Shown in pieces: positions 10,482 through 54,640 of a DNA stretch of 64,000 bases. Position numbers and translations under genes: made by a program. The notes beneath the pieces were generated by a model, which saw nothing but the letters and a program-made list of their open reading frames with translations, did no database searches and was not told the origin of the DNA. Position 1 is the stretch's first letter. Every line of letters starts with the position of its first letter. The DNA is from Octopus vulgaris (lineage: Eukaryota), in NCBI GenBank assembly GCA_951406725.2, contig OX597828.1, positions 32,736,001 to 32,800,000 on the forward strand, written 5' to 3'.

Positions 10482-10541
<60 letters not shown>

Positions 10542-12205: not shown

Positions 12206-12293
12206 ACAGCAACATCGCCCCCTATTGGAAAGACACATTCATGTAGCAAATAAACTTCACGATACATATATATATATATATATATATATCACG

Positions 12294-12351
<58 letters not shown>

Positions 12352-12916: not shown

Positions 12917-12920
<4 letters not shown>

Positions 12921-12994
<74 letters not shown>

Positions 12995-13010
12995 AGTGTG
13001 TGTGTGTATT
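12921..13010. repeat. (TA)n-(TG)n microsatellite
   Basis: Seen directly. Confidence 0.95.
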
Positions 13011-14112
13011 TATATATGTAATGCACAAACACACATACACCATATATATGCGTTTGTGTATGTATGTGTGGGTGTGTGAATCTGTACCTAAATGTGATTA
13101 TATGTGAAATTTTATATGATTATGAATATATGAATATTTGTTTGGTCACTAAGAGAGAATTATAAATCGAAAGAGATATGCTCATTGAAAGAGAGAGAGA
13201 GAGAGACAGTCAGACAGACAGACAGACAGGGAAATAAAGAGAAAAAGAGAGACAGAGACAGTGCTAATATGAGAGAGAGAGAGTTAGGCTAATGAGAAGT
13301 TTCTCTTAGCTCTGATATTCTGTGTATCTGTATAGTAAAATTCTTCAGTTATGATCAATATTTTAGTCGTAAACTTTTCCAGAATGTTCTTCTGTGTTTT
13401 CAAGTACTTTTGTTTGTCAAGTAGGAACAAGCTTCAAACGATAATATTACTGAAATCAATGGATATTACAAAAACATCGAAAACCGGCCAAAGATTTAAT
13501 ATGTTTTTGTATGTATGAATCAGTGTAGCTATTCTCTGTGATCATTAAACTCTCTGTACTTCATAAGTCAATATGCTTTTATGAGTGCGTTTGTGTGTGC
13601 GCGTGTGTATGTGTTTGTGTATGTGTGTTTCTATTTATGTTCAAGTGTGACTTTGTGTGTCGAAACAATTAACGTATAAAATATATGTTGATGGATGACT
13701 CTTGTAGTGATTTCAGCACAATTAAGTAAGAATGGAGGAAATCCTGACATCATGTAGTATTTATAAATTCAAAATGGCTTCTGGCCAAAAACCTTTAGCC
13801 GAGCACTACAATAAAAGAAATAATATAATTGCATTTCTTCTCGAATATCAAGCAAAGAATATAACGATTATAGGCTAGAATGTTTTCAACAGACAGCTTT
13901 ATAAATAGAATCATTTTGATATTGCATTGTAAAGATTCTAGTATTTGCTCTATTCTATTTCAGCAATGAGCTGAGGGAACTTGAAGACGTGTTTTGGTCA
14001 TTGAAAGTTATTGCAAGTTGTGATGTTCATGCATTTCCCCAAGAAATTTTTTATATCAATGAACTGAAATTACTCTTACAGTGATTCTGTGAATTACGTA
14101 TTTCAATAGATA

Positions 14113-14507
14113 TCTTTATATATAAAACTAAAGTTGTGTGTCTGTCTCCTACGATTTAGATTCCTAACTACTCCCACATTTTGCGGTGCAGTGTAACCAA
14201 ACGCGGGTATCTTATAGTCATGATTCATATCGAGCCCTTCTAGGTATTAGTGCGTGTCTACGATGAGTCTATGATTTAAAAAAAAAATTACCATCATTTT
14301 TTTCCCATTTTTAATGCAATTTTTGCTATTATATAAGGGAAGTAACTCTCTAAAATGGTATTATTAAATCTCAGAACGTAAAAAGCTACGGTAACACCCC
14401 CCTTTGTGGTTAGCCATATCGAGATGGCTATTATACTTTACATCTCTAAAAATGCTTATATAGTTATTTCCCTTATAAACCCGAGCAACGCCGGGCGATA
14501 CTGCTAG
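14113..14507 (+). mobile_element. non-autonomous Helitron
   Basis: 5' end A|TCTTTATATATAAAA; 3' hairpin CCCGAGCAACGCCGGG followed by CGATACTGCTAG|T. Inserted between A and T with no TSD. Confidence 0.9.
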
Positions 14508-15287
14508 TTTATCTATAAAAGTTTATCTTTGCTATTCACAACTTATGGCAGGTGCATTGTGCTTTAGCAATGTAAAGACTGCGTTTATAGCATCCCTGAA
14601 AACTCGCATTTTAAATTGAATTTCTAGAGGGAATTACACAAAATGATTTTCTCATATTCTTTGAGTACACAGGAAGACTTAGTCTGAAAGAGTTAAGGAA
14701 ATATACAATTATTTCAGTTCTAATTAATGGGCATCATCTTTATTATCCCTTAGGAATAGGTGAATAACGTTAGTAAGAAGTATATAATTTTGTTCACACA
14801 ACAATGTATCAACGGCTTCTTGATCCAGTAGGCCAGCTCTCAACCGCTTTATACTAGATAAATGCCAAGTATCTATATTTGCACAGGGTAGTGCAAAATT
14901 AGGTATGCAATTATGAAAACAGAAAACACATACAATACTCATTTATTTTTATTTAAAATATTAGAAGTTACTCTAAAAGTATTATTATACTTATGATAAA
15001 TATATTATTATTATTAAGGATACTGAATATATCAGAAATGGGTCTTACTAATTTAATGTGCTAAACATTTTAAAGAATCAAGTATTATAAATCTGATATG
15101 TTACTTACTTTATACATAATACAGCATCCCCCTTAATGAATAAAGACAGGGGATAAACATATTTTATTAAAATATAATGCAAGAGAAAGTAATAATACTC
15201 GCAAATTTTGCAAAGAATCACAAGACAGTATATAGGGCAATATTAGTGCAGAGATATGACTAATACAGCTTTACAGTTATTCTACTT

Positions 15288-15512
15288 ATTTCTTTACTGC
15301 TCACAAGGGGCTACACACAGAGGGGACAAACAAGGACAGACAAACGGATTAAGTCGATTATATCGACCCCAGTGCATAACTGGTACTTATTTAATCGACC
15401 CCGAAAGGATGAAAGGCAAAGTCGACCTCGGCGGAATTTGAACTCAGAACGTATCGGCAGACGAAATACGGCTACACATTTCGCCCGGCGTGCTAACGTT
15501 TCTGCCAGCTCG
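15288..15512 (-). mobile_element. tRNA-derived SINE family B
   Basis: The reverse complement starts CGAGCTGGCAGAAACGTTAGCACGCCGGG, then B-box GAGTTCAAATTCC and TTTCATCCTTTCGGGGTCGAT. Matches 53871-54105. Confidence 0.9.
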
Positions 15513-16410
15513 TTGATTACTCTACTGAAATAGTAATCCACTGCAAAAGTACATAGTTATTTTAGAAGAAAATTAACGCGTAAAGTTATTCTGCTGATGA
15601 TGTGTCAATAGAAATACATTTTTTAAAAATTTCTAATGTTAAATACGCTTTTTTAAAAATTTTTAATTATCAAAATTAAATTTAGCTGAGACCACCTGAT
15701 GTGATTGCTTTCAGGTTTAGGCAGCGAAACATTTCTCCTCGATGATGTTTACGCAAGACGTTATTACTATTCGAAATATCATTATTAGCTTTCTTAGGGG
15801 AATTCATTCTGGAGATCTACATTAATTTGAAATGATGTTCTTGTTTGATTTAGTTAATTATAGAGGATAATATACATTACATTATTCTAGAACTGCCTGA
15901 CCTCATTGGAATTCTTCACTTAATCTTCACGGATCAAATTTTTCCTTTTGTGACTTTTCATTGTATGACCGCAAATTATTTCTGTACTCAAGGGATGGTT
16001 TGCTGTTTATCTATCATTTATTCATTCAACTTGTTTTTTTATTATCATTATTATTATCCTGTCTATAACTTTGACATCGAAAGCAATCTATTTCCAATTA
16101 TAACTTTTACTTTCTTTCATTAAATTATAAGTAAACAAAATATACATCCATTAGGAGAAGTTTAGAAATAGCCAAAATGAATTGTCTATGAATACGTAAT
16201 AAAGGGACGTTTATAACGTTTGTACGCTTGTTTTTTTTTATTTATTTATTTTGTCTTACTATTGTGCTATGTTTTTTTTTTTTTTACTTTCCATTCCAAA
16301 TTATATTTGTGTAAATTTCTTGCATTTATTTATGTGATTTGATGGACACAAAAGCCACCTTCGCATGTTAATTTGCTTCACCCTCAGAGTTTCCTTATAT
16401 ACATATATAC

Positions 16411-16482
<72 letters not shown>

Positions 16483-17087
16483 GTGTGTGTCTCTGTGTCT
16501 CTGTGTCTCTGTGTCAGTGTATATGTATGTGTGTGTATGTCTGTGTGCACATGTATGTACATGTTTGTGTGCGTATGTATGTATGTACGTGAGTATTTAA
16601 TATCAGAAGTAACAACTAGGCAGAAGACAGTGGGGGGAAAGTATGAGTTGAATGGGAAATGAAATCAAGAAAAGCAAAAACAAAAATCACGACTGCTGTT
16701 CAATGGACGACATTTCCATGAATTTCTTTCGCCACCGTGAAGCGAAGTCACTACTGACACAATTTCAATGGTAAACAGGTAAAACGAGTTCATTTCACTA
16801 AAAACTTGGCGAATGAAGAAAACTATTAAATACCGAGGGAACAAGAAAATTTAACGTCATCTTTACGATCATCTGCCGTCCACTAATTTCCGGTAAACCT
16901 ATGTCTCGGATATGTCCGTCAAAATATCAGCTATAAAGCTAATCTGCTATGCAAACAGTGTGAAATATAGTAATGCAAGCATTCCTAGTACAGCTCCCTT
17001 AATTTATTATCTTAGGAGTATGAAAAAGAAATTTAAAGGGAGTTATAAATACAACTACACATAAGACAGCTCCTACTATATACACAC

Positions 17088-17120
<33 letters not shown>

Positions 17121-17885
17121 CATGTGCGTCTGTGTGTATATATACACACACACGCACACATTGAACAGGAAGCTGAAATGAATAAGCTTTATTCACAACT
17201 CACAGCGGCTGTTTCTCTGCTTTATTAATATCATTCTTAGTCGTTGAGTTTTCAATACGATACTATTAGATAAATATTAGATAATCACTTTATGAATATG
17301 GTCCTCAAATAAATGTGTACCCACACGTCCTTAAGTGAGTTGCTTCGAAAGCATTGCTGAAGTACACCCGATATACCCTTGTTTTATGCCCATATTATAT
17401 GTGTACCAGCCCCTCGATAAAGAGTAACATGTGGATTGAAATAGATAGAAGTCGTAAATGTATAAAGTAATGTAAATAAAAATCAAAAATATAAATTATA
17501 AAATAAATAGACGAAGATTAGTGAATGTAACTAATGATTAAATATATATAACATATATATAACATACGTTAAATTCTGTCTTTTATTTTTAGCATAAATA
17601 TGCCTCGCTTTCATGAGATAGATTACCACTCAAAGATGCCAAAATATAAAACTAGGATGATTTATTATCACGTTTGTCTGTAAATATTTTACCCCATCCC
17701 TAACACTAACCCCAATATAAAGAGCACGTAGTCACTTTATTACACCAACAGGATTTCAATTTGTTTGCCAGTCGGCACAAAAGGCTTAATTTCAGCTGCT
17801 TTGTTTCTCATCACACTCGCTTAATCTCTGATAGCTGCTATCACACAGAAAGTGATTTATTTAACCGAACCCAACTACACACACA

Positions 17886-18657
<772 letters not shown>

Positions 18658-19278
18658 ACCGATATGCATGCATTTATACATACATATTCACCTATACACA
18701 CACACACACTCATATATACACACTATTGACGATTCCTTTCGTTTCATAGCATTAGGTTAAACCACTCATTCCTTATACTCTTCTACATGTTCATTTAGTT
18801 CACATTAATGTGTATATATCTGAATATACCTAAATATATTATCAATCAAAATATATCTCCGTTTTTATCTCTTAACCATGTGCATCTCTGCGTGTCAATC
18901 TACGAATCATTTTCTATTTATGCAATAATATTTCGTCACAATACATATGTCTAGTCTATTGTCATTTTCCTTTCTTCTAAACTACTGTAACGAACAAACC
19001 GGTTATTATGGGATTATATAATTCAGATTGACAGCTATATAAATAATATAGTTTTAAAATACCAGCAATGACGCTGATATATTATAATAGCATTTTGGAG
19101 TGAATATCGGGTTGATACAACTAAATGATCATAGATAAATACAAATTACTACAATTATCACATAATTCAGGTAAGCAACAATGCAGTCTTTCTATTATAC
19201 GTAATCAACAAATTTTAAGTACATTTTGGTGTAAGTCAAGGATTGACATAATATAAAACGCGCACATGCACTCACACG

Positions 19279-19315
<37 letters not shown>

Positions 19316-19436
19316 GTATATACATACATAAATATTTATATATGTATGTGTGTATGTATACACGAGTATCTGTATATATATATAGAGAGATATATATAGA
19401 TATAGATATATATATGTATATGTACATATATTTATA

Positions 19437-20660
19437 CAGGGCGTTTCAAAAACTTTGATATCATTTAGAAATCTAATGACTTTGCCACTTATTGTTCAAA
19501 TGACTTCAAATTTTAACACCATGTGTATAAACAGGTCAAAATTTTATGTTTATATGTTTGGTGTTTGATATGTTTATCTTTTCATGTATAGAAATGGCAT
19601 TCACTGAAAGAGAAAAGGCGTTTTGTGTGTTGGAGTGTGCAGCGTGCATTTGGGAGAGAGCTTTCTAAAAAGTCACCAATGACCATGCAGATTAGGACAT
19701 GGTACAAAAAATTGAAAAAATGGAGGCTTTTTGTGTAGGGCAAAAGGATGTGGTCGACCACTAACATCGGAAGAAATGGTCGAGCGGGTTCGCCGAATAC
19801 TCTTGCGAAACTCCAAGAAATCCATAAAAGAAACAAATCTGGAAACCCAGATTCCTCCAACGACAGTTTGGCGCGTTCCGAGAAAACGCTTGCTAATGAA
19901 AACCAACAAGCAGCAGCTTGTTCAGGCCATAACGGCATATGATAAGCAAAATCGTAATCAGTTCTCTGTTGATAAGCAACAGAAACTTGAAGAAGCCGAG
20001 TTCAAGGATCGTCATGTTTTCAGTGATGAGGGCACCTTTCATACGAATGGCAAAGTCAATAAGCATAATGTTCGCATTTGGGGCAACGAAAACCCCCATG
20101 CCACAGGTGAGCATGATAGGGACTCACCAAAAGTGAATGTGTTCTACGCCATCTCTAAGAAGCATCTTCATGGCTCGTTTTTCTTTGAGGGAAATGTGAC
20201 CGGTGATGTTTGTCTGTTAATGCTTCAGAACTGGCTAATGGATGAGCTTATTGCAAATGAAGAAGAAGAGTTCATTATTCAACAGGACAGGATGGGGAAT
20301 ATCACTGTGTAGGGTTATCTTAACGACAACCTGCGAGGAAGATGAATCAAGCGTGCTGGTGATGAAAACAATGTGCTGTTGAAATGGCTGCTTTTCACAT
20401 GACCTGACACCTTGCGAGTTTTTGCTCTGGGGCTATGTAAAAGGCCTGGTCTATGTTCACCCTCTTCCTGCAAACCTAGAGGAACTCTAGCAGAGAATCA
20501 CTGGAGACTGTTACACAAGGCATGCTGCAGCGTGTTTGGGACGAGATGGACCACCAACGTGACCTCTACCGTGTCTCAGGCGGCGCGCATATCGAGCGTT
20601 TATGAAATCGTTCAGGGAATCCATATACCTTTGAATTTCTCATTCAAATTTGGAGGAATA
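19437..20660 (+). mobile_element. Tc1/mariner transposon (DUF4817-HTH, DD41D/maT-like), nearly full pseudogene
   Basis: 5' TIR TA|CAGGGCGTTTCAAAA. ORF 19731-20312 has GRP, FSDEGTFHTNGKVNKHNVRIWG, SPKVNV and QQD. Downstream frames give PDLTPC..LWGYVK and GAHIE-like motifs. No 3' TIR found. Confidence 0.9.
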
Positions 20661-20700
20661 AATCCCCTCTTGCTCAACATTAAGCCTTATTAGTTTCATT

Positions 20701-20760
20701 TGCTAACAACAAAGAAGTTGAGGTCAAATATCCGTCAAATGTAAATAACGTAAATAAAGT
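20701..20760 (+). mobile_element. short Penelope-like terminal (pLTR) fragment
   Basis: AACAACAAAGAAGTTGAGGTCAAATATCCGTCAAATGTAAA resembles the inverted PLE terminus at 48100-48171. Confidence 0.5.
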
Positions 20761-20764
20761 AAGT

Positions 20765-21464
20765 AATGAATATTCATATAGATATTTTTATTGTTATTAC
20801 TATCAGCGGCAAATTCTAATATTTGAAAATAATATCAACAAAAATATAGGTGACAGCAAGCAAGAATAGCATTAAATAGCTAGAGAATAAAACTATAACT
20901 GCAATAGACGGCACCTGAGGCACCTACTTGCTAGAAAGTTGAGTTAAGTCCTGGTGCAGGTATTTCTGATTCTTCATACTACATCTTTGAGCTAAAATGC
21001 ATTTGGTTATCTTTACACTCTCGCTCGATTTCTGTTGATGTAATTCGGTTTTTAATAGAGGATTCAATTTTTTTCTAGCAGGTAGGTGCCTCGTGTGCTC
21101 TCTATAGCAACTAAAGCAGCATCCAGAACACGAAATCGTGATCCATGTATATCCGATTCATTATTCACCAACTCTGAGTTGTAATAATTTTGATAATCTT
21201 TACTCGCTTACCCGATTTTTGTTTGATCTGTTGTGTATTTCAATGTAAATCGCTAGTTTAGATGAGGACTTTTAAATCCTCTTTCTAGCAAGTAGGCCCT
21301 TTTGCCATCAATTGTAATTAAAGGTTTATTATAATTATAAATTTTATTCTCTAGTTATTTAACGTTATTATTGCTTGCTACCACCTACAGCTTTGTTATT
21401 ATCAATTATTTGAATTTGCCGCTGATAGTAATAACAAGAATAAATATATATATCCATATTCGTT
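20765..21464. mobile_element. foldback/MITE-like element with ~170-bp imperfect terminal inverted repeats
   Basis: 20765-20940 is the reverse complement of 21280-21464, e.g. TTGTTATTACTATCAGCGGCAAATTC / GAATTTGCCGCTGATAGTAATAACAA and CCTACTTGCTAGAAAG / CTTTCTAGCAAGTAGG. Confidence 0.75.
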
Positions 21465-21476
21465 TGAAGATTTACT

Positions 21477-21691
<215 letters not shown>

Positions 21692-22109
21692 TGCACACAC
21701 ACAAATATATGTAAATATATCAAGAGAGAGTGAGAGAAAGGCAGGATGGATCAAAAGGGAGGTCTACGCATTGACACGTAGATACATGTGTGTATATATG
21801 CCTTCCTTCATTTATGTTTAACTGTCCATAATTTGAATACTGTTAAAAAAATCTGCAAAAAGCAGACCGACATTCTCACGCTGGTTTTGTATCGTTAAAT
21901 TCTGACGCTAACTTCTACCCCATGCGTCTATATGTTATTAACTTGCAATGGACTTAGATCGATAGAATTGACTATATGCCATTCTTAATCCTAAACGCGA
22001 TTATCCAAACTGCTTAAGGATGAGAATTATAGGTGCACAACTAACTTATCTCTGCTATGGCCGCCAGTAAGAATTTTGGCTGATAAAGGCACCAAAGAAT
22101 GAAAAGCTA

Positions 22110-22845
22110 CCACTTGAAAAGTGTTTATCGAATGTCTGGATATGATCTCCAGGGGCACGGACTGGATAGTGGTGTGAACATCAACGGTGACCTATTAATA
22201 TATCCTACTCATCATCAAAACCACAGATCACTTGGAGACATGCTGAGAACGCTGGACGCTCATAGTGCAGGAGTAGGTCTTAATATGAATGTAATCACAA
22301 TATACACGGTCTGAAAATGTAGCACAAGGATGAACAAGGATGAACGGTCTGAAAATGTAGCAAAAGTGATAGAATCGAGAAGGTAAGGAGTACGACATCG
22401 TGAGGCACGCAATGGAAATGCGCAGAGACATGGACTCTAAATTCCCGAGGGTGATAAGAGCAATATAGGAGTATTCTACCGCGATAAACATGTCCTTATG
22501 GTCAAGATGGACCAGACTGTACAACCTACCAGCACCCAGGTTAATAATAACGAAAAACGCCGATTGGCTACCACACAAAGGGTCATGAGAGCTGCATGAT
22601 AAGAATAATAATTGGAGAAAGTATCCGAAAAAATGTAATTCGAGAAATAAGCGGGGTTATAACAGAATACTGAACGCAGAAGTTCCGCTGGGCCGGACAT
22701 GTCTCAAGGTTCGCAGAAAAGAGGGAAGTCTAGTTGTTGCCGAATGATATCGAAGAAATCAGCAACGGCCACTCGGAAGGCTTCCACGACAATGGAAATC
22801 CGATCTACTTAAATGATTTGGGACAAAATGGAAAAGAACGGGGCA
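22110..22845 (+). mobile_element. RTE-clade LINE remnant (RT C-terminal region)
   Basis: Frames give GVNINGD..., DMLRTLDAHSAGVGLNMN, RLATTQR, KFRWAGHVSR and RPLGRLPRQWKSD, which are RTE C-terminal motifs. Confidence 0.8.
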
Positions 22846-23067
22846 ATCAAGAATAAATTGAACGCGCTTGATAAAATTGGGGATATAACAGGATCGAAGA
22901 GTCTGATCGATATAGTGGTTCAATTGTATTATTTTGGAAAATAATTTTATTTGTCGAATAACGGTTGAATATAGAAATTGTTTTACGTAAAATCAGTACT
23001 TCAGAAAGTTGATATTCAATATTCAGTCGCTGGCTGAATTCACGTCTGATAAAAAATGGGGCATACA

Positions 23068-23345
23068 TAGGCGCAGCTGTGAGTGTGTGCTTAAGATTCT
23101 AAAGGCATGGTTTGGTTTCAGTTCTACTGCACGCCAACTCCAATGTCTTAACGCTATGTGAAGTAATTCGGTACGCGGAAACTCTTTGTGTGTGTGTGCG
23201 TAGGGGGGGTCTGCGTGTGCGCACCTTTGTATTTGTCACCATTCCACTTCACCAACAGGGTCGATTTCTCCGTCGCTAGACGCTGACCTGGAATACAGAG
23301 TTCCAGTTTGACTGCAGTCCAATGTTTCAAACAATTAAAAGCGTA
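23068..23345 (+). mobile_element. SINE family A, highly diverged
   Basis: AGGCGCAGCTGTG head, GGTTTCAGTTCTACTGC, internal (TG)n, GGGTCGATTT and a CAGTCCAATG..AAACAATTAAAAG tail. Confidence 0.55.
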
Positions 23346-24570
23346 TAAACATATATTAGTCTACATGTAAGCAATCACATGGTTAGTCGATAGGAAGTTT
23401 CACTCCCGTAGCGAGGTACATTCAGTAAGATTTTTAGCTATAACCACAGTTTGAGCCAATTCTTGTAAGTGAATGAGAAAAAAGAAAATATATATGTGCG
23501 TCCGAAGAATAAAAAATAATAAAACAATATATGTGCGTCCGATGGATTATATTTTTAATTGAGAGAGTCTGCCTTGTTACACCCTGTGACGCTGGTTCCT
23601 AGAGACTGTGTAACAAGACAATCTTAACTAACTTTGATTATGTCACATGTAGGAAAGTCTGCGGAATATTCAGCTGCAAATCCATTTTGATTTACAGCTA
23701 TGTAAATGTACAATGCATTTGCTCCGATATCTGCTTCTGCGCGAGTATTTTCCATGTGCCTGCCAATGTAAGTGTACTTTTAAAATGAATAATTAAGAAT
23801 ATAATAGAATTTCAGAAGCTAAGCGTATTATTGCAGATTAATTGAAATTTAGTGCTTAAGGGAAATTCAAACCAAAATATATTTCTATTTTCCCGAACTC
23901 TATTATTTCTGTGTAAAATGATTTTAATTAATCTTCATTTCACTATGTCCATTACTTTACAAATATTCATATTCCTATTTAATAAAATTCTAAGAATTAT
24001 AAATTGTCATCACGAGAAGTAATTTAGAAAAAAAATTACATGGATTAATTTCCAATCTTAATCTTTGCCGGAAGAATTTGAAAAGAAAAATAGCAATAAA
24101 TTGCTTCTTTCTTTCGACGAAATGTACGTACAGAATCGTTCGTACAGTTGATAAGAAAGCAAAAAGTATTATACAATGATTTCTTACTTGTTTAATAGCA
24201 AGACGTTATGTATAATGTTACATAATAATGAGTTCAACTTCAATTTCCTAGGCTTCCATTCGTTTTTTATATACACAACATAGCGGCTGTGGGTACCACC
24301 TTTCTTCCTTTACCTGGTGTATTCGGTAACGGTTTCAAAATTCCAAAACTAGACTTATACCCACTAATGAAATATAAGATGTTCTCATTCTGCAATCAAA
24401 ATATTTATACTTGTTTTCTTTCAGCATGAACTTGAGTATAAATTCTTTCCTTGAATAGATGCTAAATTTCTGCCTACTTCGAAAACTGCAAAATTTTAAA
24501 TCTCACATTCCATCAGCGCTTATATTCACTGTCATTTATTCAAATTAGATTTTTATGTATTCATTTATTC

Positions 24571-24895
24571 ATAGCTCACTGGTTAGAACGTCGGGTTCAC
24601 AATCACGAAGTAGTGAGTACGATTCTCGTATCGGACAGTGTGCCGTGTTCTTGCACAAGACACTTTATTTTTATGCTGCTCCAGTTCATGGAGCTGTAGA
24701 AATGATTTGCGACGTAACTGATGCCAAGCCGTATCGACCCCTTTGCCTTTCCCTTGGACAACATCGGTGGCTCGAAGAAGGAAGACTGGTAAGCATAGGC
24801 GACTGCTGGTCTTCCATAATCAATTTTGGTTGGACGTGCAGCTCAGAAGATAATATTCTCGGTACAATCACATGGTTATTCGTGACCAAAGCGAG
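24571..24895 (+). mobile_element. tRNA/CORE-like SINE family C2
   Basis: Colinear with the reverse complement of 61999-62330 (CAAGACACTTTATTT, GATGCCAAGCCGTATCGACC, GGCGACTGCTGGTCTTCCATA). Confidence 0.85.
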
Positions 24896-25502
24896 TTTCT
24901 ACTATATATTCGAAAAAGCAGACATACACATACGCACATATATCTGTCTGTATCGTGTGTGTAAGTGTGTGTAATGTATATATACGTATAGGAGTCTGTA
25001 CTGAAGATTAAATTTAAAATTTCCTAACTCCAATATTTAGACTCCCCATCTTGGGACAATATTCAAGGAATAACATAGAAAATCGAATATGTGAATATTA
25101 AAGAGAAAATATTGGTAATTATTTTTCATTAGCTCCCAGTGTAAGAATGTAAATTGAATAAATTAAATTATGATATAAAGGGATTTGGTTATAGCTGTTG
25201 TTTGAGGCTAAGGACATTCATAAAATTCCATTTAATTTCAAATAATAAATTTATTAAACCCTACCAATTTTATTCACAACACAGTGTATGGCAGAAGAAC
25301 TGCAATAATGTTCAATATAACAAATCGTTTCTGCAAGTTAACAACCAGGGAGAAGAATTTTATAAGAAACCGTTTGGATAGCTCCTGAGAGAAGACGTAC
25401 TTTGCTAATATAAAGCACAGAGCAGCTGCTATACAAGGCCGTCACAATCATAAATATACAGCTTAGTCTATCCTCCAATATGGCATTTCCTATTGTTGCA
25501 TA

Positions 25503-25752
25503 AGGCGGTGAGCTGGCAGGAAGGCGGCGACCCGGACGAAACGGTAGTACGCCAGGCGAAATGTTCAATACTCGTCTTGCTACATAATATTTCTGTCTTT
25601 ACGTTCTGAGTTCAAATTCCACCGAGGTCGTTTGTGCCTTTCATTCTTTCGGGGTCGATAAATTAAGTACCAATTGCGTACTGGGGTCGATCTAATCGAC
25701 TACCCCCCACTCTCCCAAGATTTCGGGCCTTGTGCCTAGACTAGAAAAGAAT
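25503..25752 (+). mobile_element. SINE family B
   Basis: AGGCGGTGAGCTGGCAG head, GAGTTCAAATTCC B-box, TTTCGGGGTCGATAAATTAAGTACC. Confidence 0.85.
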
Positions 25753-25780
25753 TTCATGTTGTTGTATATTTCAAGTCGTG

Positions 25781-26048
25781 AAGGCACGTGACTTATGCGT
25801 TGCAGTATTCGGCTCACAATCGAAGGTTATCAGTTGGATTCCTGTCGGTGCGTTTGATTTTCAACAAGATACTTTATTTCACGTTACTCCAGTTTACTCA
25901 GCTAGTAGATATTCAGGAAGATTCCGTGTCACACTGATTTTCCCTCAGAACTACGTTAAGAGTATGCGTGTATGCGTAATGCACCTCAATTTCATGAGCA
26001 GGCTGTTCCTTTGAGAGGATCAGCCGGTAGACTCGTCGCTGTAACCAA
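25781..26048 (+). mobile_element. SINE family C1, diverged
   Basis: Colinear with 55256-55560 (ACTTTATTTCACGTT, CTACGTTAAG, GAGCAGGCTGTTCC). Confidence 0.8.
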
Positions 26049-26249
26049 CAGAATGTCAGCTATAGATTTCAAGGAAATTATGCTAATGGTTGGTGAAGGA
26101 GCGGCTACCGTACCTTATTTACGGCTTTAATCGCATCAAAAAAGTGTACTTACATGTTTATTTAAACGAGAGCGAGTCGTTGTCTTATTTAAATCTATTT
26201 AATATCTTCTTGTATATGTTTTGGTATGCTTGTTATTGATATTGGTTAA

Positions 26250-26436
26250 TTGGTTAGCACGCCGGGCGAAATGCTTAGCAGTATTTCAGCAGTCTTTACG
26301 TTCCTTACTATCATCCCTTTGGGGTCGAGTAAATAAGTACCAGTTACGCACTGAGGTTGATATAATCGACTTATTCCCCTGTCTGTCCTTGTTTCTCCCC
26401 TCTATGTTTAGTCTGCGGTGGGCAATAAAGAAACAG
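26250..26436 (+). mobile_element. SINE family B, internally deleted
   Basis: GTTAGCACGCCGGGCGAAATG ... GGGGTCGA..AAATAAGTACCAG ... GGGCAATAAAGAAA. Confidence 0.8.
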
Positions 26437-26558
26437 ATATTGTTTAATTGATGGCGGGTCATCAAATGCACACATCGTGTAATTTAACATGGTCTAATTA
26501 GTGACTGCTTTGTGTCACAACTTACCTGTAATCTAAATTAGCATTGGAAACCAGGTAC

Positions 26559-26602
<44 letters not shown>

Positions 26603-26642
26603 GAAATGAAGAAAATGCTGACAAAATAATTTAAGTAAGGGA

Positions 26643-26697
<55 letters not shown>

Positions 26698-28361
26698 CTG
26701 AACGATCAGCAAATAATGAAAGCTTCCGTCAAGTATCGCACAGGTTCTTTTCTGCACATCAATAGCTCAGAAATACTGTGTGCATTCATATTTATCTCAC
26801 GGTGAGGCATTGTAATATTTATATGTATTAAATTATTTAAGAGTGTATGAGAAATGAATAAAATAATCAAAATGTCGATAGAGGGAGAAAGAAACAGAGA
26901 AAATATTCTAGACTTTTTAACACTCAGAATACTATTTTTCAATGGAGAAATGTTCATGTGAAATACTCGCCTTGCTATATAATAATACATTGAGAGAAAG
27001 AAAGTGATTGAAAGGCATAAATAACATTAACATTAAGACCGAAAGAAAAATCTCCGAATATAATGGTCTCGAAAATAATAGAGAGAGAAATAATGAAAAA
27101 AGGAACATTTTAAAGTAATATAAAAATAAGAGAGGAATTACATTAGAACTGATGATATACGTTCGAGAATTATCTTGCTGACATGAACTAATATGGCGAA
27201 CATGATGTTATGCATTATACTAGCAAATACTTTAATTCGAGCAAATAGGTACAGACAAATATTCGATCTTGAATTCCAGAAGTCCCTAAATCTCTATAGT
27301 AAAATACTTCCAGCACTACGCTTATTTCCATAATTTCTGTGTATCTTCAGAGTGATCAGTACCAAGGACGTACATTACAGTTTATTAATATCGTTACACT
27401 TTTTGTTAATCTCTACGTATATTTGGATATTCCTGTCGAAAATCATTTGTCGAGATTAACACAAAGGCAATAATATGTTGATTTGCATCGATCTTCTGTC
27501 GCTCATAAGTGGGTTGATAACCATAATTCAGTTTAAATTTGGGGCAGTACAGTAAAACTGTAGGAAAACTAGAGACTTCAATTTGTGTTAAGCCGTCTAC
27601 GGTTTACACAGTCATAAGCAAATGAAGTGCTGTAATTAGCATTGTTTGACAGGCAATTGGCTCTAATAGAATTAACACAGCTAGAAAAAATTGCAAAAGC
27701 AGAATACCTTAATAGAATTTTAATTAAGATGGTTCTGTGTAACCTAGTAAAATGATGTGACTCAGAATATAAATTCTTTTGCTATATTTGATCGGATATT
27801 CAAGCTCGAATGTGTATTATACCATATAATGTTTCTTAGTTATGTTTGGATGGGAGCTAAATATGTTTGCGTATAAACACTATTATATATGGTCACTCAT
27901 ACATATACAAATTTAACTGAAGTTACACGTAGCGGCAATCTTTGTAACCTTCCCATAAAAGCACGCTATATCTGAAGTGAAAAACGAAATGCGCATACTA
28001 AGATTCAAAACTTAGTTATGGAGAACGTGTTGTGCAGAAAACTATTGGAACCCTTGTAAATAATAAATATAAATTGACTATAGAATAGCCTGTCCGCTAA
28101 GTTCACCGTCATCAATTCACAGTTTTTCTGTTTTTGATTGGTGTTATGTTTTTTTAATAAACTAATTTTTAACTACTAATGGTGAGATACTATGGACATG
28201 TTTCCCCGGTAAACTTGACTCGCAGTGAACTCACTGTGTGCTTTCTTCACGGTGAATTCAAGGCGGTGATCTCATAGCTCTAACCATAGTATAGTCTTGT
28301 GATGACGATAATATATATTAGTGTCTATAATTTAAGAGTCAATTGTTGTAATATCATTTTG

Positions 28362-28537
28362 ATTCCAGCCATGCTAGAGTACCGTCTTTAGTCGAGATAA
28401 TCGACCCCAGGTCTTATTCTTTGTAAGCCTAGTATTTTTTTCTATCGGCCTCTTTGCAGAACCCCTAGGTTACGGGTACGTAAACACACAAGCATCAGTA
28501 GTCAAGCGATGGTGGTGGAACAAACACAGACACACAA

Positions 28538-28571
<34 letters not shown>

Positions 28572-28704
28572 GCGACGGCCTTCTTTCAGTTTCCACTCAC
28601 AAGGCTATGGTAGAAGACACTTGCCCAAGGTACCACGCAGTGGGACTAAACCCGGAACCATGTGGTTAGTAAGCAAGCTACTTACCACAGATCCACTCCT
28701 GCGC
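28362..28704 (-). mobile_element. SINE family A, internally deleted
   Basis: TTTAGTCGAG..AATCGACCCC, internal (TA)n, GCAGTGGGACTAAACCCGGAACCATGTGG, CCACTCCTGCGC. Confidence 0.88.
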
Positions 28705-28831
28705 TTTTCCACATTATTTAAAAACTACTTTACAAATCCATGCAGTGACATCCTTCTCAATATATTCATGCATATGAAAAAAATACATACATATACCTAC
28801 GCGCGCATTCACACCTATATACATAACTATT

Positions 28832-29100
28832 ATCTTTTACTTGTCTGTTCCAGTCAATACATTGCGGCCTAGCTGTTGCACCACCTTGACATTTTTTAGT
28901 TGAACGAATTTATGCATGTACGTAATTTCTCTTTATTTTTTTAAACCTGGTGCTTATTCTATCGGTTTGTATCGACGAACAGCTAGGTTACGTGTAAGTA
29001 AACAAACCAAGATGAGTTGTCAGACGGTGGGGGAACAAACCCATTCGCGCAAACACACATACACACACACAAGCACACAAACACATACACAAAAACACAC
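28832..29100 (-). mobile_element. SINE family A 3' half, diverged
   Basis: TCTTTTACTTG tail, CTTATTCTATCGG, GCTAGGTTACG and a (CA)-rich segment. Confidence 0.65.
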
Positions 29101-29122
29101 GCACATACATGCATACATCGGA

Positions 29123-29310
29123 GACCCCCTTCGGTCACGAATGACCATGGGATTGCACCTAGAAAGTTACCTTCCAGGACACAAGTCCAGGCAAGGTTGT
29201 TTGTGGAAGACCAGTAGTCGCCCATGCATAATATCCTCCCCTCCCCACACCACTGATGTTATCCAAGGGAAAGGCAACGGCCGATACAGCTTGGCACCAG
29301 TGACATCACA
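29123..29310 (-). mobile_element. SINE family C2 3' part
   Basis: Close match to 61999-62185 (GACCCCCTTCGGTCA.GAATGACCATGGGATTGCACCTAGAAAGTTACC). Confidence 0.88.
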
Positions 29311-29623
29311 TTAGTAAATAGAAGCATTGGTAAAAATAAGCACCATGGTCTACAAACACATAAAAAAATGTATATATATTTTTTACATTCTGCGATTTTA
29401 TGTATATGTATTATTTTTTATGTGTTTGTTGACCATGGTGTTTTTTTATATGTGATTAAATTTTTGAGGGGTGGTGTTGAGTGTAAAGTCGTTTACCAAA
29501 ATTTAATGTTTGTCGTATAACCAATGCTTCTTTATCTTTGTCTCATTAACATTTGAGCACTTCTTTTGCAGTCTTATAAAACATTTTGTTTCTATAATAA
29601 GAGACAAATATTATTTCTTGTTG

Positions 29624-29662
<39 letters not shown>

Positions 29663-30754
29663 CCACTATTATATTTTTTAATAATTTTGTTACATATTTA
29701 AATAATATAAATTAATCATATGTATTGGCTTAAGTTTTTCATTGTTTGATTTGCCTAATAGTGGTTTTGTCTCTAATTTAATATAATATAATATTTTACT
29801 ATACAATTGGATTCAATCCTAAATCGGATTTTTCCCTGTAAGTTTGGATTTATTCCCTAATATTTAATATTTATATATATACATACAACTCAGTTTCCAC
29901 CCATTGAACCACTTACAAAGCTTTAGTAAGCCCAAAGGTACCATGCAGTCGGACTGAATCCAGGGCCATGGGAATCGAAAACAAATTTCTTATCACGCTC
30001 CTTATATTTAAAAAAGGTACAATCCAGCCAAAGCGGAATGGGTACCGCAATGGAAGAACTGTCGTAATAATTTCACACACTTTTGTCATCCCCAAAACGT
30101 CTTCAGCCATGTGGAAATCGTTGAGAACTGAGGAGGAATAAGAGAATGAGGAAGATTAAGACAATCATAGTAGAGTGATCGTGGTATGAAACCCACGATA
30201 TAAAATTCAAATAACATATATTCTATTTATTATGCGTACAAAGAAATTAATGTTCATATAATGTATAAAGGAATGTACTTTTTCGTTCCATAAATAGGAG
30301 TAAGAGTATCAAGAAATTCTTACTAACTTAACCTCGAATAGGATTTGAGTTGATAAATCAACATTTGTTTGGTGAAAGAAAAACACATTTATGACATTTA
30401 AATTTAATATAAGCTACGCAAAAGAGCATCAGTTTTATTCCACCTTCTATTTTAAGTATGGTAGCAATTTCCTTAGCTTCTAGCATAAGAGCTGTACGTA
30501 AGATTATAGAATTTCTTTTATAGATACCGGTAATGCTGTTGGATAAAATTCAAATGTAAACTTTTCTTTATCAACATACTGGATTTTCATTTTTAATTTT
30601 TTTTATCTTATACTGCAAATAGGGTCGCAATAAAATTTTCAAGATCCGACATGTCAGAATTAGAAATTTTGAAGTTTAATAAATATATCTCGAAATTCTT
30701 CTCTAACATCGAAATCATCTCTTTTTTTCCTTATATCTTCAATGCACTGTTCTT

Positions 30755-33804: not shown

Positions 33805-36435
33805 GACTTACATTCGAACCGGAATCAATTCCAATGACATCGACAAGATAATCTCTGCAGACCTTCCTGATCCAGCTTTAGACAAAGAACTATACGAAAT
33901 AGTTAAAGCAAACATGATACATGGTCCATATGGGCGTGGATTCAACATAAACACACCATGCTTGAATGACAGCATATGTTCAAAATGATTTCAAAGGAGG
34001 TTCCTTCAAGAAACTCAGACAGGTGCTGATAGGTATCCATCATACATACGCAGAAAACCAGAAGACGGAGATTTCACAGCAGCTATCGGACAGCACGATA
34101 TTGATAATAGATGGATTGTTCCATACTCCCCACTCCTGTCAAAGACTTTCAGTGCCCACATCAACGTTGCGTTTTGCAACTCCGTTAAATCCATCAAGTA
34201 CGTTTGCAAATATGTAAACAAGGGTTCTGACGCTGCAATATTTGGTCTTCAACAAGAATACTGCCAGGATGAGGTGACGCATTATCAGGTGGGACGGTAC
34301 ATAAGTAGCAACGAGGCTTTCTGGCGCATCTTTGGCTTTCCAATTCACCAACGACACTCCGCCATTCAAAAGAAAATGGTCAAAGAGTGTACTTCACCGA
34401 TGCTAATGCTTCTCTGTTGGCAAAGGAAACAAGGGATAGTACACTCACTGCATTCTTCAAGCTTTGTCAAGTGGATCCATTCGCTCAAACCTTGCTGTAT
34501 CCACATCCACAGATTCCATCGTACTACACTTGGAATGGAAAAAAATGGGCCCCACGGAAAGCAGGTCAAAATGTTCATGGATACCCTGGCATTAAGTTTC
34601 ACACCTGCCTTGGGCGTGTATACACGGTGCATCCTACTCAACAAGAATGTTTCTACCTTCGTCTACTACTGCATGAGGTCAGAGGGCCAACGTCTTTCCA
34701 TGCACTAAAAACCGTTCATGGACATGTCTGCACAACATACAGAGAAGCCTGCTATCGACAAGGTATGTTAGAAGATGGTGCACAATGGGATGCAGCTTTA
34801 GGAGAGTCTGCTTCATCACAATCACATAAAAGTATCAGGGCACTATTTGCAGTATTACTACAGGCATTCGAACTGTGTGATCCGGCCACTCTATGGCTCA
34901 AATATAGAGACAACATGACTGAAGACTTTCAGCGCCAAGCTCAACTGCTCTATCCTGACATGGAGGGTATTAGCAATGAAATCTATAACAAAACACTCAT
35001 TGACATTGAAGACAGAATTGCTAAACTGGGAGGAAATGAATTGTCGACGTATGGCCTGTCACAAGCATTCAGGTCAGGGTCAAATAGCCTTCCCACTGTT
35101 GTCATTCGTGAAACAACCTACGACACTCAAGCGCTTTCAAAGTACATTCTTGAAAATGAGCCTAAATTACTTCCGGACCAGCTGCAGGCCTACATAACTA
35201 TTCTTAACAGTGTGCGCCAACGCGAGGGACGAATCTTCTTCTTAGAAGTTAGCAGCATCAGGACATTGCAGTAGCTATAGCCTCCTCTGGCATTGCAGTT
35301 ACTTTGTTACCCGGTGGCAGAATAGCACATTCAACATTTAAACTCCTTCTCAATTTAGCAGCATCCGAAATGCCTTCATGCAACATCAACAAAAGTTCAG
35401 ATCAGGGACAGGTACTTAAAATGTGTCATCTAATTGTCTGGGATGAGTGCACTATGGCTCACAAGGGAGCTTTGGAAGCATTAGATAGAGCCCGGAAAGA
35501 CATCCGAGACTGTCAGGCTCCAATGGGAGGTGTGACGCTTCTGTTGTCAGGTGATTTCAGGCAAACTCTTCCTGTCATTCCGAAAGGCACTAGAGCAGAT
35601 GAAGTCCAAGCATGCCTAAAGCATCCTCTACCCCAAGCATCCTCTACCCTGTAGCATCATGTTACAATCCTCAGTTTCACCACTAACATGAGAGCTCAAC
35701 TACACGGGGACAAAATGTCCACAAAGTTTGCACAGGACATTTTGACACTTGGTGAAGGCAAGATGCCTCTCGATGCTGCAAGACAAATGGAAGTGTGGTC
35801 ATTTTCATCAGTTGTTAATACTGTAGATGACCTCAAAAACAAAGTCTTTCCCAACTTCACACAAAACCAAAATCACAATTGGCTGTTAACAAAATTAATC
35901 AACAGCTAATGCATTCAACAAGCCTGTTGATACAATTCCAGATATAAATGAAGTTGTGAAATATCATCCTCAATTTCTCAATTCACTGGAGCCTCCTGGA
36001 CTACCTCCACACATATTAGCACTTAAAGTTTGAACTCCTGTAATGCTACTCCGCAATCTGGAATCACCAAGACTTTGCAATGGAATACGACTGGTGATGA
36101 AGAAAATTATGTCACACTTTATCGAGGTTATCATTCTTTATGGATGTGGAAAAGGTGATGATGTCTTTATTCCAAGATTTCCTCTTACTCCATCAGGAGC
36201 AGAAATTCCATTTACATTCAGAAGACTGCAATTCCTCCTTCGTATCAGCTTTGCCATGTCCATTAACAAATCTCAGGGTCAAACCCTCTCTGTAGCTGCT
36301 CTTCTCTTGGAAGAGCCCTGCTTCTCGCATGGGCAACTGTATGTTGGCTGCTCAAGAGTAGGAACCAAAAGAAACCTTTTTGTATATGCTCCACAAGGAA
36401 AAAGAAGGAACATTGTTTACAACGAAGTGTTATAA
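33805..36435 (+). pseudogene. Helitron RepHel (HUH Rep C-terminal part + PIF1-like helicase), frameshifted
   Basis: Rep region: IDKIISADLPD..MIHGP, NRWIVPYSP, IKYVCKYVNKG (motif 3), GRYISSNEAFWRI, ECFYLRLLL..GPTSF. Helicase: ASSGIA..LLPGGRIAHS, LIVWDECTM, GDFRQTLPV, LRNL..RLCNG, AMSINKSQGQTL, HGQLYVGCSRV. Confidence 0.95.
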
Positions 36436-47414: not shown

Positions 47415-48433
47415 ACGCTGCTGTTGTTACGGCATGTCTGTAATATCCTACTGTCTTGTAGGTGAGTCCAGGAAGCCATATGCAGGGGGAAAGGTCGTCA
47501 TCGACGAGACTGAGTGTCTTATGAAAGGAATTCGACTCGTCCAAAAGTCACCCAAAGCAATAGTGCTTCACTTTGCATTAGTTTCCAAAAATCTCTATTT
47601 CCAACACTCTCATCAAACATTCCGATTCCATGTTTCAGTCAACTTCGATTACTTGTTTCTCGATACTAATTTCACTGATTCATAAAAGTATTAGAAGACA
47701 TAGCGCTGGCTCTATGAATCTATATTTTCACATCTCATGTGAAGAATAAATATCAGCCCGTAATATATTTGATCAGGAAACTGATACCATTCTTTGTTGA
47801 ATACGACCTCATAGTAGGCCGTATAGCTATAGATTTATTAAGATCCAGAAAGTACTTTTGCTACCTAGGACAGTGAATGCGTCAGACTGAAAACAAATTT
47901 GTTGTAAAGATTTTCTTAGCGTTAGTGTCCTAACATATTTTGTAGTGACTCCCTAACACCCATTTCAGATAAGTACAGTATGATCTATGAGAACATAATA
48001 AGAACGAATTATTTTCGGAGATATCTCCTGAACATGGGAAGTAATATATTATTAATGTTTGAGTAATGTTTTCCTCAGAGTTTAACAACATCAGAAATTA
48101 TTTAATTCTTTGCATTTGACGAATATCTGTCTTATTTGTTGTTAACACAACGCTTCGGTTGATATACCCTTAAAAGCTGTGACACGAGGAAATATTGATA
48201 AATCGGGTATAGCTGATCATGTATGGAAAAATGGAGGTCACCTCCCCCTGTGGAATGAAGTTAAACACCAATGAAAAATACGAAACCTACAAGAAGCAGC
48301 ACATATGCTAGAACACAGCAATCTCCTAAGCAGACCGAGTGCAGATATGAAAAGCATATAGGAACTGGTATTAAAGAAGGATAGGAAAATATCAGATTTA
48401 TAAGCCCTAAAAAGTCACTCCATAACTGACCAC

Positions 48434-48506
48434 GGATATATGGCGTACTGGTTAAGAGCGCGGGCTACTAACCCCACGATTTCGAGTTCGATTGCGAGCA
48501 GTGACC
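48434..48506 (+). other. tRNA-like (Pol III A/B box) module embedded in the PLE 3' region; not a functional tRNA
   Basis: TGGCGTACTGG (A-box-like), anticodon-like arm GGG-CTACTAA-CCC, GAGTTCGATT (B-box-like). Acceptor and T stems pair poorly. Confidence 0.6.
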
Positions 48507-48601
48507 TGCATATAAATGATAATAATGATATTAATAATAATAATAATAACAACATCGAAACATACCTTAGAAATAAGCACCAAGGTTCGAAATTTCCCCC
48601 A

Positions 48602-48645
48602 AGACACCTGATGAAGGCTGGAGGGTATACCAGCCGAAACCTTCG
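48602..48645 (+). ncRNA. minimal type I hammerhead ribozyme motif (PLE pLTR), 3' part damaged
   Basis: GACAC-CTGATGA-A-GGCTGG agggtata CCAGCC-GAAAC, with a perfect 6-bp stem II. The inverted copy supplies CGTTGTGTT for stem III and stem I'. Confidence 0.7.
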
Positions 48646-50574
48646 GTAACATCAAAAATTATTTATAGTTAGCATTTTATGTGTCATATGTCAGCATTCA
48701 TTTACATTTTTAAGATCATATATGTGAATAATTTATTAAATAAGGAAGCATTGTTAATTTTATTGTTTGGTGGGAAAAGTTATCACTAAAGGATAAACAA
48801 TGAAAACAAACATAATTATGGAACATATAGTAGTAGTTTAACGATGTAAGAAGGATATAGGGCGTAATCCATGTTCCGCATATTACTCTCAGTCTCTATC
48901 AATCGCAGAAGTAAAGGAAAATAAATGTTTTGAGGATGCCATAGAACGGTGTTGGTAAAAGAAATTTCGCAGAATGTTTTCAATTTACATTTCTTTTTTC
49001 TCTGTTTTTTCTCCGATGCAGGGCAATTCTTCAAAATTTGCTCACTTCTTACTTTCTGTTTGATCCTTAGAAGCTTAAGCTAACATCGTATACCAAGAAT
49101 GCCTATGCAGTTGGGGTTTTTTTTCCGTTTTCCTTGATACATGTTCGTGAACGTTTAACTATGCTGACGTAGGGGCATATAGATTTTTGGTTTACTCTTA
49201 ATTCAAAACACACTGGATCTATGATTATCACTTTCTGGTGCTCTTCGTAAATCCTCATAAAAGCAGCCTCAATTGGTTTCATACACACAAAGTGTGAGAT
49301 TTCAAAGATTTTTGACATCACTTGCTCGTAATGTATTCGTATTCGTGTATGAAATCGAATACATTGATTTTATGATATGAAACCTAACTACGATTAACAG
49401 AACAACCAAGAAAAACGTGCTTCTATATAATTGCTACGACGCTTACAGAATACTCAACCTTCAATGATAATATATTGCTAAAAGAAAGAAAAAAAAACGC
49501 TAATAGATTTGGATGGGAAATGAGAGTATGACACAGACACAAATAGGAAACTATTAGGCTACTTCGGAAAACTGATCAAACGTAGATTTATATTTTTGGT
49601 TTGAAAGTCAGCAATGAATATCGATAAGTCAGTATTGTCCTTTGCAATTCAAAGACTGGTATTCAGATCAATGATATTGATTAGGCACTTCGGGCAAAGA
49701 TTCAGATTCGCAAGAGAGTGAGAGTGAAAGAGAGAGAAAGAGAGGGAGGGAGAGAAATAGCTATGAGATTACGTGCCTTTTAAGCTTTTATCGAGAGCAT
49801 TAAGAGCGCAAGGGAAGTATACAACTTTCAACTGGGAATGGAAAGTGTTTGGTCGACACATTTTGCCGCGATAATCAGGGCCTTTACATTCATGTTATTT
49901 CCGTATAAGGTTAGGGGAATTATAGAAGGATATTATCGGCATCAGTGAAGGGAATTGAGGTGGTCAATTTTTCCATTCGAATGGAACTTAACAATGGGAT
50001 AAATGTTCCTCACAAGAGAAACCTGCTGAAATAAAACGTTTCGTGAAATACTGTTAATATAAGCATGATTGAACATTGCCTTAGCTTCAAAGAGTGAAAC
50101 ACCCAAAAGAAATATGTTTGTATACGACCATCAACTATGTTCCCATATAGAAACATGCACACGTATATACTTGCAAACGCACACATATACAAATGTATGC
50201 TTGTAAGTGTGAGGACGAGCGTATATTTGCCTGTATTAATTATCGTGTGATAGCTAGGGATTACATACCACTATCAGAGTCATTCTCTTGCATGCCTTTT
50301 CTATCCTCTGACGTATGCGACGATTGAATGGATAGGGAATCGAATGTAAATTATAGTTTGGTCGTGTAATCTCTGCTTACTTCACACGATTTAACATATA
50401 TCCGGCTCTACACACTTCTAGCAAAATATTGGGTTGAGCACTTTTATATTTATTGCACTCAGCAGGAGATAAATAAAAGGAATATACATATACGTGTCTA
50501 AATGAAGGTGTGTGTGTGTGTGTATGTATGTGTGTGTGTGTGAGAGAGTGCGTGTGTGTGTGAGAGAGGGTGAT

Positions 50575-53870: not shown

Positions 53871-54640
53871 AGGCGGCGAGCTGGCAGAAACATTAGCACG
53901 TCGGGCAAAATGTTTTGTGGTATTTCGTTTGCCACTACATTCAGAGTTCAAATTCCGCCGAGGTCGACTTTGCCTTTCATCCTTTCAGAGTCGATTAAAT
54001 AAGTATCTGTTACGCACTGACGTCGATATAATCGACTTAATCCGTTTGTCTGTCCTTGTTTATCTTCTCTTTGTTTGGCGTCTTGTGGATAGTAAAGAAA
54101 TAGGTATTTCGTCTGCCGCTACGTTCTGAGGTCAAATTCCGCCGAGGTCAACTTTGCCTTTCATCCTTTCGAGGTCGATAAATTAAGTAGCAGTTACTCA
54201 CTGGGGTCGATATAATCGACTTAATCCGTTTGTCTATCCTTGTTTGTCCCCTCTGTGTGTATCCACTTGTGGGCAGTAAAGAAATAGGTATTTCATCCGT
54301 CGTCACGTGAAGAGCTCAGAGGCCGACGAGGCTGACCTTGCATTTCAGCCTTTGGGAACGATAAAATAATTACCATTTGAGCACTGAGGTCATCAACTTA
54401 AACCCCTGCCTCTAATTTACTGGCCTTGTGCCAAAATTTGAAATCAATATTAATATGTAAATGCATAGCTGCATTTCGTCCGTCTTTACGTTCTGAGTTA
54501 AAATTCCGATGAGGTCAAATTTACCAGTCACTCTTTCAGGGTCTATAAAATAAACACCAGTTGAGAACTAGGATCGATGTAATCGAATTTCCCCCTTTCC
54601 CTGAAATGCTCTCTTCGTACTGAAATTTGAAACAAATATT
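53871..54640 (+). mobile_element. head-to-tail array of four SINE family B units
   Basis: One full unit (53871-54102), then headless units starting at (G)TATTTCGTC-like sites (~54103, ~54288, ~54472), each with a B-box and GGTCGAT/GTACCAG-like core. Confidence 0.85.

Follow-up and report, generated by a model that had tools for sequence, protein, structure and literature searches.

The window insertion and its parts

In the 64-kb window of Octopus vulgaris DNA (the whole stretch analysed, in which the window coordinates below are given), the initial annotation had described a remnant of a Penelope-like element (PLE) endonuclease, a tRNA-like head, an (AAT)n spacer and a hammerhead ribozyme in series. 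All of these were found on the plus strand, about where it had placed them. Its inventory thus stood for the parts it listed, and it had overlooked an inverted piece of the 3' end and an 18-bp direct repeat (Table 1).

Table 1. Parts of the insertion, in coordinates of the 64-kb Octopus vulgaris window
Feature	Position	Strand	Remarks
Left copy of the 18-bp direct repeat	48087..48104	.	17 of 18 bases shared with 48648-48665
Inverted arm: family 3' end, hammerhead loop II through tail (~head+185 to +265)	48105..48170	-	Inverted repeat and alignment to family majority
PLE GIY-YIG endonuclease C-terminus, 5'-truncated, broken	48173..48403	+	Ends at family stop codon, 48401-48403
Inverted, decayed repeat of the initial ~16 bases of the head	48417..48433	+	Pairs with head start as a hairpin in the family (-10.8 kcal/mol)
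tRNA-derived head	48434..48506	+	A box 48441-48451; anticodon-like loop 48465-48471; B box 48486-48495
(AAT)n spacer, length highly variable across the family	about 48510..48553	+	
Linker with family start codon (head+136; mutated in the window copy)	48554..48602	+	835-codon frame starts there
Minimal type I hammerhead	48603..48647	+	Stem I 5' strand 48603-48607; core CTGATGA 48608-48614; extra A 48615; stem II 48616-48620/48631-48635; GAAA 48636-48639; family cleavage site after 48643
Right copy of the 18-bp direct repeat	48648..48665	.	Partner of 48087-48104

The direct repeat flanking the insertion is likely a target-site duplication, judging from its sequence; the reverse complement of its left copy also resembles the family tail when aligned to the family majority, which makes this boundary ambiguous. 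The natural 3' end of the insertion is carried by the inverted arm and the long arm terminates near the cleavage site, so that priming appears to have taken place on both strands. The anole PLE PAc is described as nicking and extending both strands (PMC11167929). The short inverted copy ahead of the head may be a fossil of a fold-back formed when the head was captured.

The endonuclease remnant, identical at 16 of 30 residues to a full-length PLE protein, is damaged by one deletion, one frameshift and stops. At conserved positions both the A box and the B box carry bases other than those of the family majority. Downstream of GAAAC the hammerhead has lost the palindromic G together with the 3' strand of stem I, so that stems I and III are broken and the motif falls short of the minimal type in feature 16.2 and in stem I. 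Given this damage to the boxes, the start codon and two hammerhead stems, the window copy is a dead, ordinary insertion, and a functional role for it is not supported. The reported lack of a TTTT run between head and ribozyme was confirmed, the first TTTT downstream of the head being at 48675.

A search with tRNA and hammerhead models, recommended with the initial annotation, called neither element. At default settings ARAGORN found no tRNA at the window locus or in a well-kept copy, and Rfam found neither a tRNA nor a hammerhead in the window, at the locus or in the well-kept copy L034. Identification of the head therefore rests on its box motifs and on its identity with host tRNA-Arg genes (below), and that of the hammerhead on its motif and stems.

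The family, its protein and its fixed head

The 2.8-Gb genome (227 contigs) was searched for further copies. A 491-nt region of the window was matched in the same order at 39 other places, nearly full length and with 81-85% identity, among the top 40 of 4,504 candidates, and the exact stem II 22-mer occurred 7,569 times as against 0 for a reversed control. The ordered series is thus not a product of chance. Exact 22-mers of the head and of the ORF end occurred 1,807 and 932 times, respectively; these raw counts were rejected as a copy profile before correction for decay. Corrected numbers, which are rough and based on small samples, were about 28,000 arms for the hammerhead, 12,000-22,000 for the head and 1,600-2,200 for the ORF end, so that end copies of the family number roughly 10,000-30,000. 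Mean identity of the copies to the family majority was 93.5%, and none of the long copies inspected was intact.

Upstream walking gave a family unit of 2,673 nt, consisting of head, (AAT)n, minimal hammerhead, tail, an ORF for reverse transcriptase and GIY-YIG endonuclease, and the next head. In the family majority a frame of 835 codons opens at head+136, crosses the hammerhead and, in tandem copies, continues into the ORF; the head itself contains one short upstream AUG. The residues encoded at the hammerhead align with the N-terminus of a relative. A relative with just 55% identity in the reverse transcriptase region has conserved the amino acids that hammerhead and tail encode (P0001, residues 18-60), and in-frame reading of the ribozyme therefore appears to extend beyond the family. 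Of the local hairpins in the unit, the strongest (-16.1 kcal/mol in 30 nt) lies in the ORF start region, about 2,200 nt upstream of the head and about 180 nt past the tail-to-ORF junction; it is a candidate protein-binding or translation signal.

RVT_1 scored above cut-off in two real family copies, the endonuclease region aligned with the anole PLE protein P0014, and Pfam returned no GIY-YIG match for the family protein. Among 2,771 candidates there were 51 relatives, the best being 55% identical and one, the Anolis protein P0014, 35%. The family has the single ORF with reverse transcriptase and C-terminal GIY-YIG of endonuclease-bearing (EN+) PLEs, and a partial-tandem pseudo-LTR (pLTR) precedes the ORF, with 126 matches to the tail-to-ORF junction and upstream repeats in L166, L365, L382 and others. 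From its sequence the family appears to be an EN+ PLE of the Penelope/Poseidon type, the likeness to Anolis being one of 35% pairwise identity. Two scans of viral contigs revealed no relatives. A profile search for other PLE families in the same genome gave only this family in the 30 loci fetched, and hence provided no same-genome PLE control.

The tRNA-like head belongs to the PLE end repeat as a fixed component. When ORF ends were picked without regard to head or hammerhead, the head followed the stop codon at the same distance in 24 of 27; the remaining three have internal deletions, with the sequence resuming further along the unit. This settles a check proposed with the initial annotation, namely whether the module belongs to the PLE consensus. 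The A and B boxes that it had noted, mutated in the window copy, are intact in the family majority, where they match the Pol III type-2 pattern, and both are intact in 41 of 122 heads. Comparison of the head with host tRNA-Arg genes revealed 49-50 identical bases out of 74 (z 6.9 against shuffles). As tRNA-Arg was the closest among 35 host tRNAs covering few isotypes, the match does not fix the source isotype. The family thus has at the 5' end of its repeat the tRNA-related head with A and B boxes that marks tRNA-derived SINEs. The suggestion that the head serves as an internal promoter of a downstream tandem copy held as to placement, since the head does stand in an upstream repeat before the ORF; within the window there is no downstream tandem copy.

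No pair of A and B boxes was found downstream of 80 related PLE loci, of which 26 have less than 300 nt of downstream DNA, with a pattern that caught only 6 of 30 family loci. One candidate for a second headed PLE was rejected: in L256 a tRNA (2593-2660, RF00005, 38.6 bits), the sole tRNA from an Rfam scan of 17 of these 80 loci, lies upstream of a truncated ORF and is not repeated after it. This segment is probably a separate SINE or tRNA.

Where the copies begin and end

To determine the 5' ends, hammerhead-word sites of contig C1 were taken in chromosome order; 99 of the initial 100 listed were recovered and, after merging, gave 88 insertions. Thirty-eight of the 48 insertions that reach head+15 stop at -25 to +14, that is, within 40 nt of the 5' end of the head. 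Neighbouring windows of the same sample gave 8/56, 20/76 (a 60-nt window with the microsatellite masked), 12/88, 1/10, 0/9 and 1/9, or 0-26%. Since most copies that reach the head begin right there, the head is likely the element's own Pol III promoter. Flanking direct repeats of at least 12 bases were present in 13 of the 38 head-start insertions as compared to 0.7% of mismatched flank pairs.

The same pile-up would also arise if the head were a passive fossil, a captured piece of tRNA or SINE in the 3' UTR of a PLE transcribed by Pol II, whose palindrome stalls reverse transcription or folds the cDNA back. Fold-back is a real rival because an inverted arm is present in 30 of the 38 head-start insertions and the sequence at the head start is palindromic, its hairpin (-10.8 kcal/mol) being the second strongest in the unit; smaller clusters of 5' ends at other short palindromes of the end repeat, at about +150 and +244, agree with it too. 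However, among insertions without an inverted arm 8 of 15 begin at the head as well (P 6e-4 against 15%), and the one ORF hairpin stronger than that of the head stops just 1 of 37 copies. In this control, which used score-selected long copies, the eight strongest ORF fold-back sites stop 0-4 of 37-75 copies each, against a background of 3.3%. A passive head also sits poorly with a family majority that keeps both boxes while its cloverleaf goes unrecognised, and with the absence of TTTT from the sense strand described below. We therefore regard it as unlikely.

Direct template jumps were seen at head -6 and -11 in two loci (L405, L445), and three loci extend from the head into the unit by +467, +632 and +1,199 nt (L382, L365 and L166, respectively). 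Most of the 91 tail-to-ORF junction sites start further down; where they reach head+15, they stop at the head in 10 of 12 short and 3 of 6 long sites. Among 39 copies that run at least 150 nt into the ORF from an upstream repeat, only three start at the head and three further upstream, the remaining 33 starting further down or having no detected upstream repeat.

Units with head and hammerhead and no ORF, whose occurrence it had been proposed to check, are the commonest head-bearing form (38 of 48). Octopus tRNA-derived SINEs, namely OK, OR1 and OR2, were described in the 1990s. The short units could be an independent, PLE-dependent SINE with masters of its own, the ORF-linked heads then being SINE/PLE chimeras. 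Head-bearing ends are, on rough estimates, about 5- to 14-fold commoner than ORF ends, short copies have target-site duplications of their own, and they are slightly less diverged (3.9% as compared to 5.0% outside CpG), all of which would suit such a SINE. Against it, 60 head-start and 59 ORF-linked heads cannot be told apart at any position, and among 41 matched copies each of the two main three-site haplotypes was present both with the ORF (4 and 3 copies) and without it (12 and 9). Together with the head at 24 of 27 ORF ends, this argues against a non-autonomous lineage distinct from its partner, and a separate SINE of this kind is quite improbable, although some short copies may have been amplified secondarily. 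The initial annotation's proposal of a separate SINE or retrozyme lineage thus found no diagnostic positions to rest on. Since their subfamily variants are common to short and ORF-linked copies, the short copies look like repeated by-products of coding masters, as far as the sequences tell.

The features of the hammerhead were judged against the list given for minimal hammerheads in PMC4209133. In the family majority every one is present: the core CUGANGA and GAAA, the extra base before stem II, the G10.1-C11.1 pair, the palindromic 15.2-16.2 and a short stem I. The strict core is intact in 51 of 201 copies, and the core varies frequently at a single site, the free position 7 (T in 143 and A in 54 of 202). 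Insertions nevertheless seldom end at the cleavage site: 86 of 88 end at least 27 nt past it, and the 3' ends form two clusters at +252 to +272 and +285 to +301, 50-95 nt beyond it. The templates of insertion thus appear to have been mostly uncut. For PAc, reverse transcription is reported to start at two sites inside the ORF start, with uncut RNA as the main substrate (PMC11167929).

The intact motif would allow a retrozyme-like alternative, in which the mobile intermediate is a self-cleaving RNA of about 206 nt that spans head to cleavage site and may become circular. Besides the described minimal hammerhead features, with the one frequent core variant at position 7, a further point in its favour is that in 8 of the 91 copies entering the ORF the 5' end lies 1-8 nt beyond the cleavage site. 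This small pile-up was not accepted as proof of cleavage; it coincides with a palindrome. The positions of the 3' ends speak against the self-cleaved RNA of about 200 nt that had been put forward as a mobile unit, as do the failure of single minimal hammerheads to cleave in vitro (PMC4209133) and the insertion of uncut RNA by PAc (PMC11167929), both as described in those sources. Moreover, a circular RNA would give no 5' pile-up at the head, and each of the 88 insertions sampled stands alone or as an inverted pair, unlike the tandem hammerhead arrays of retrozymes. We consider this alternative very unlikely.

Possible Pol III transcription and related systems

If the whole unit were read by Pol III, its sense strand would be expected to be free of TTTT. 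The sense strand of the 2,673-nt unit indeed holds none, where 4.8 would be expected by base shuffle (P 0.006), 4.6 by synonymous recoding (P 0.006) and 2.7 by codon shuffle (P 0.036); GGGG is likewise absent (P 0.04). Set against 31 composition-matched relatives, the gap has P 0.017, or 0.064 allowing for runs made by decay, and 3 of the 31 are as poor in TTTT as the family copies. Across 220 real copies there were 92 TTTT runs, which is the number expected from decay alone (89 ± 9). Observed against expected runs were 19 vs 106 in 30 family copies and 721 vs 473 in 80 related PLE loci, where zero TTTT was found in three loci, all shorter than 1.5 kb. Eight ORFs of four other reverse transcriptase families of the same genome have 2-13 TTTT each, near or above expectation. 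The TTTT-free strand thus hints at Pol III reading of the entire coding element; as a sign of such reading it is suggestive, not decisive. Among the related PLE loci, L264, L265 and L268 have 1 TTTT in 2,361 nt, 0 in 1,041 nt and 0 in 1,488 nt, respectively. Weak tests detected no head in these three, which are possible parallel cases.

We read about 6% of each of three raw RNA-seq runs from one study. The 3' unit drew 5,500-8,400 reads per run, with equal depth on both strands and a profile that follows the DNA copy profile, and the three runs had neither sharp read ends nor a head-specific start, the latter being in keeping with a passive head as well. Depth at the ORF start was below 15, and with this ORF-side depth no GT..AG joint, which would denote an intron in the pseudo-LTR, was among the joints listed. 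The pattern fits passive transcription of scattered copies and is uninformative on Pol III.

Taking the evidence together, we consider it likely that the Pol III head drives the short by-product RNAs of the family. Pol III would start a few bases before the head, and from a terminal or solo repeat would make an RNA of about 300 nt running to the next T-run of the host. Holding one minimal hammerhead, this RNA would stay uncut; it would carry the tail recognised by the element's protein, by analogy with the anole PAc, and would be copied in trans to give SINE-like by-products. In a tandem master, a start at the same head could read into the ORF, the sense strand being free of TTTT. Hammerhead cleavage, either dimeric or helped by protein, may be a later step.

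More tentatively, the whole protein-coding retrotransposon may be a Pol III unit, which would have replaced its usual promoter by a captured tRNA promoter, purged TTTT from 2.7 kb of coding strand, made a protein of 835 residues from an uncapped RNA and shed tens of thousands of SINE-like end copies; we put this at somewhat less than an even chance. R2 elements are a precedent for cap-less translation. For the two PLEs with mapped promoters, the pLTR is described as containing both a start site and an intron (PMC8557442), which suggests Pol II and counts against a Pol III head.

The family is most readily compared with Penelope/Poseidon PLEs such as PAc of Anolis carolinensis (PMC11167929, PMC4209133). 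As described there, these are alike in the single ORF with reverse transcriptase and C-terminal GIY-YIG, in the partial-tandem end repeats, in the minimal hammerhead overlapping the ORF start and in the inverted insertions; the two clusters of 3' ends that make the tail likewise resemble the two internal start sites of PAc. Unlike these elements, the octopus end repeat opens with a head bearing A and B boxes, where most copies begin, and its sense strand is free of TTTT. The PLE promoters of PMC8557442 are described as overlapping a spliceosomal intron in the pLTR, whereas the octopus family had none among the RNA-seq joints listed.

In Sm-alpha and Sj-alpha of Schistosoma (PMC6765202, PMC2770079) a tRNA-related Pol III promoter is likewise followed by a hammerhead, and the promoter of one unit can drive the next tandem unit, as proposed here. 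Those elements are described as non-coding, with canonical hammerheads, whereas in octopus this arrangement forms the end repeat of an element that is autonomous and coding and has a minimal hammerhead in its ORF start. The TRIMp3 elements Cassandra, Helenus and Ajax (PMC10886601) share a Pol III promoter derived from a small RNA inside the terminal repeat. They are described as non-autonomous LTR elements of at most about 1.3 kb, while the octopus head sits in the coding PLE itself, and their autonomous partners are argued to require Pol II (PMC10886601). Among the layouts as described in these sources, Sm-alpha (non-coding, Pol III promoter with hammerhead) and TRIMp3 (non-coding, Pol III promoter in a terminal repeat) are the nearest. 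Non-LTR retrozymes (10.64898/2026.07.22.740005) are presented as non-coding hammerhead units derived from PLE end repeats, as are the octopus short units; they differ in forming tandem arrays with a hammerhead per unit, the octopus units being dispersed single or head-to-head insertions. The words 'tRNA', 'pol III', 'promoter' and 'octopus' do not occur in the main text of that work. Going by titles and the openings of abstracts, none of the papers retrieved describes a PLE with a tRNA or Pol III head; the consensus files of PMC13282606 or PMC8557442 may hold the family.

A coding PLE with a built-in tRNA promoter would link the autonomous element and the SINE, with the SINE arising inside its partner. 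Pol III promoters are generally taken as a mark of parasites without coding capacity, SINEs among them. Should the full element indeed be made by Pol III, it would be a test case for long Pol III transcripts, for cap-independent translation and for the role of the PLE hammerhead. PLE ends may also account for many of the annotations given as 'SINE' or 'tRNA' in this genome.

Other repeats were observed beside the family. Family copies in L036 and L048 (both about 1700-1830) and in L050 (about 1680-1830) have unrelated, coding-like sequence behind their (AAT)n tract or linker, probably other retroelements inserted into or beside the microsatellite. Among the top 30 RVT_1 loci (L217-L246), 24 belong to one family with frames of up to about 950 codons and many near-equal scores, which is a young, probably active LINE. 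Elsewhere in the window, three overlapping open frames lie on the plus strand at 33989-35654, the last matching a PIF1-like helicase (PF05970, E 8e-37), and likely represent a broken Helitron-type element. A 36-bp unit is repeated eight times with 93% identity at 8530-8818, and a 184-bp unit at 53919-54294, in two tandem copies of 86% identity, looks like a common SINE body of this animal group.
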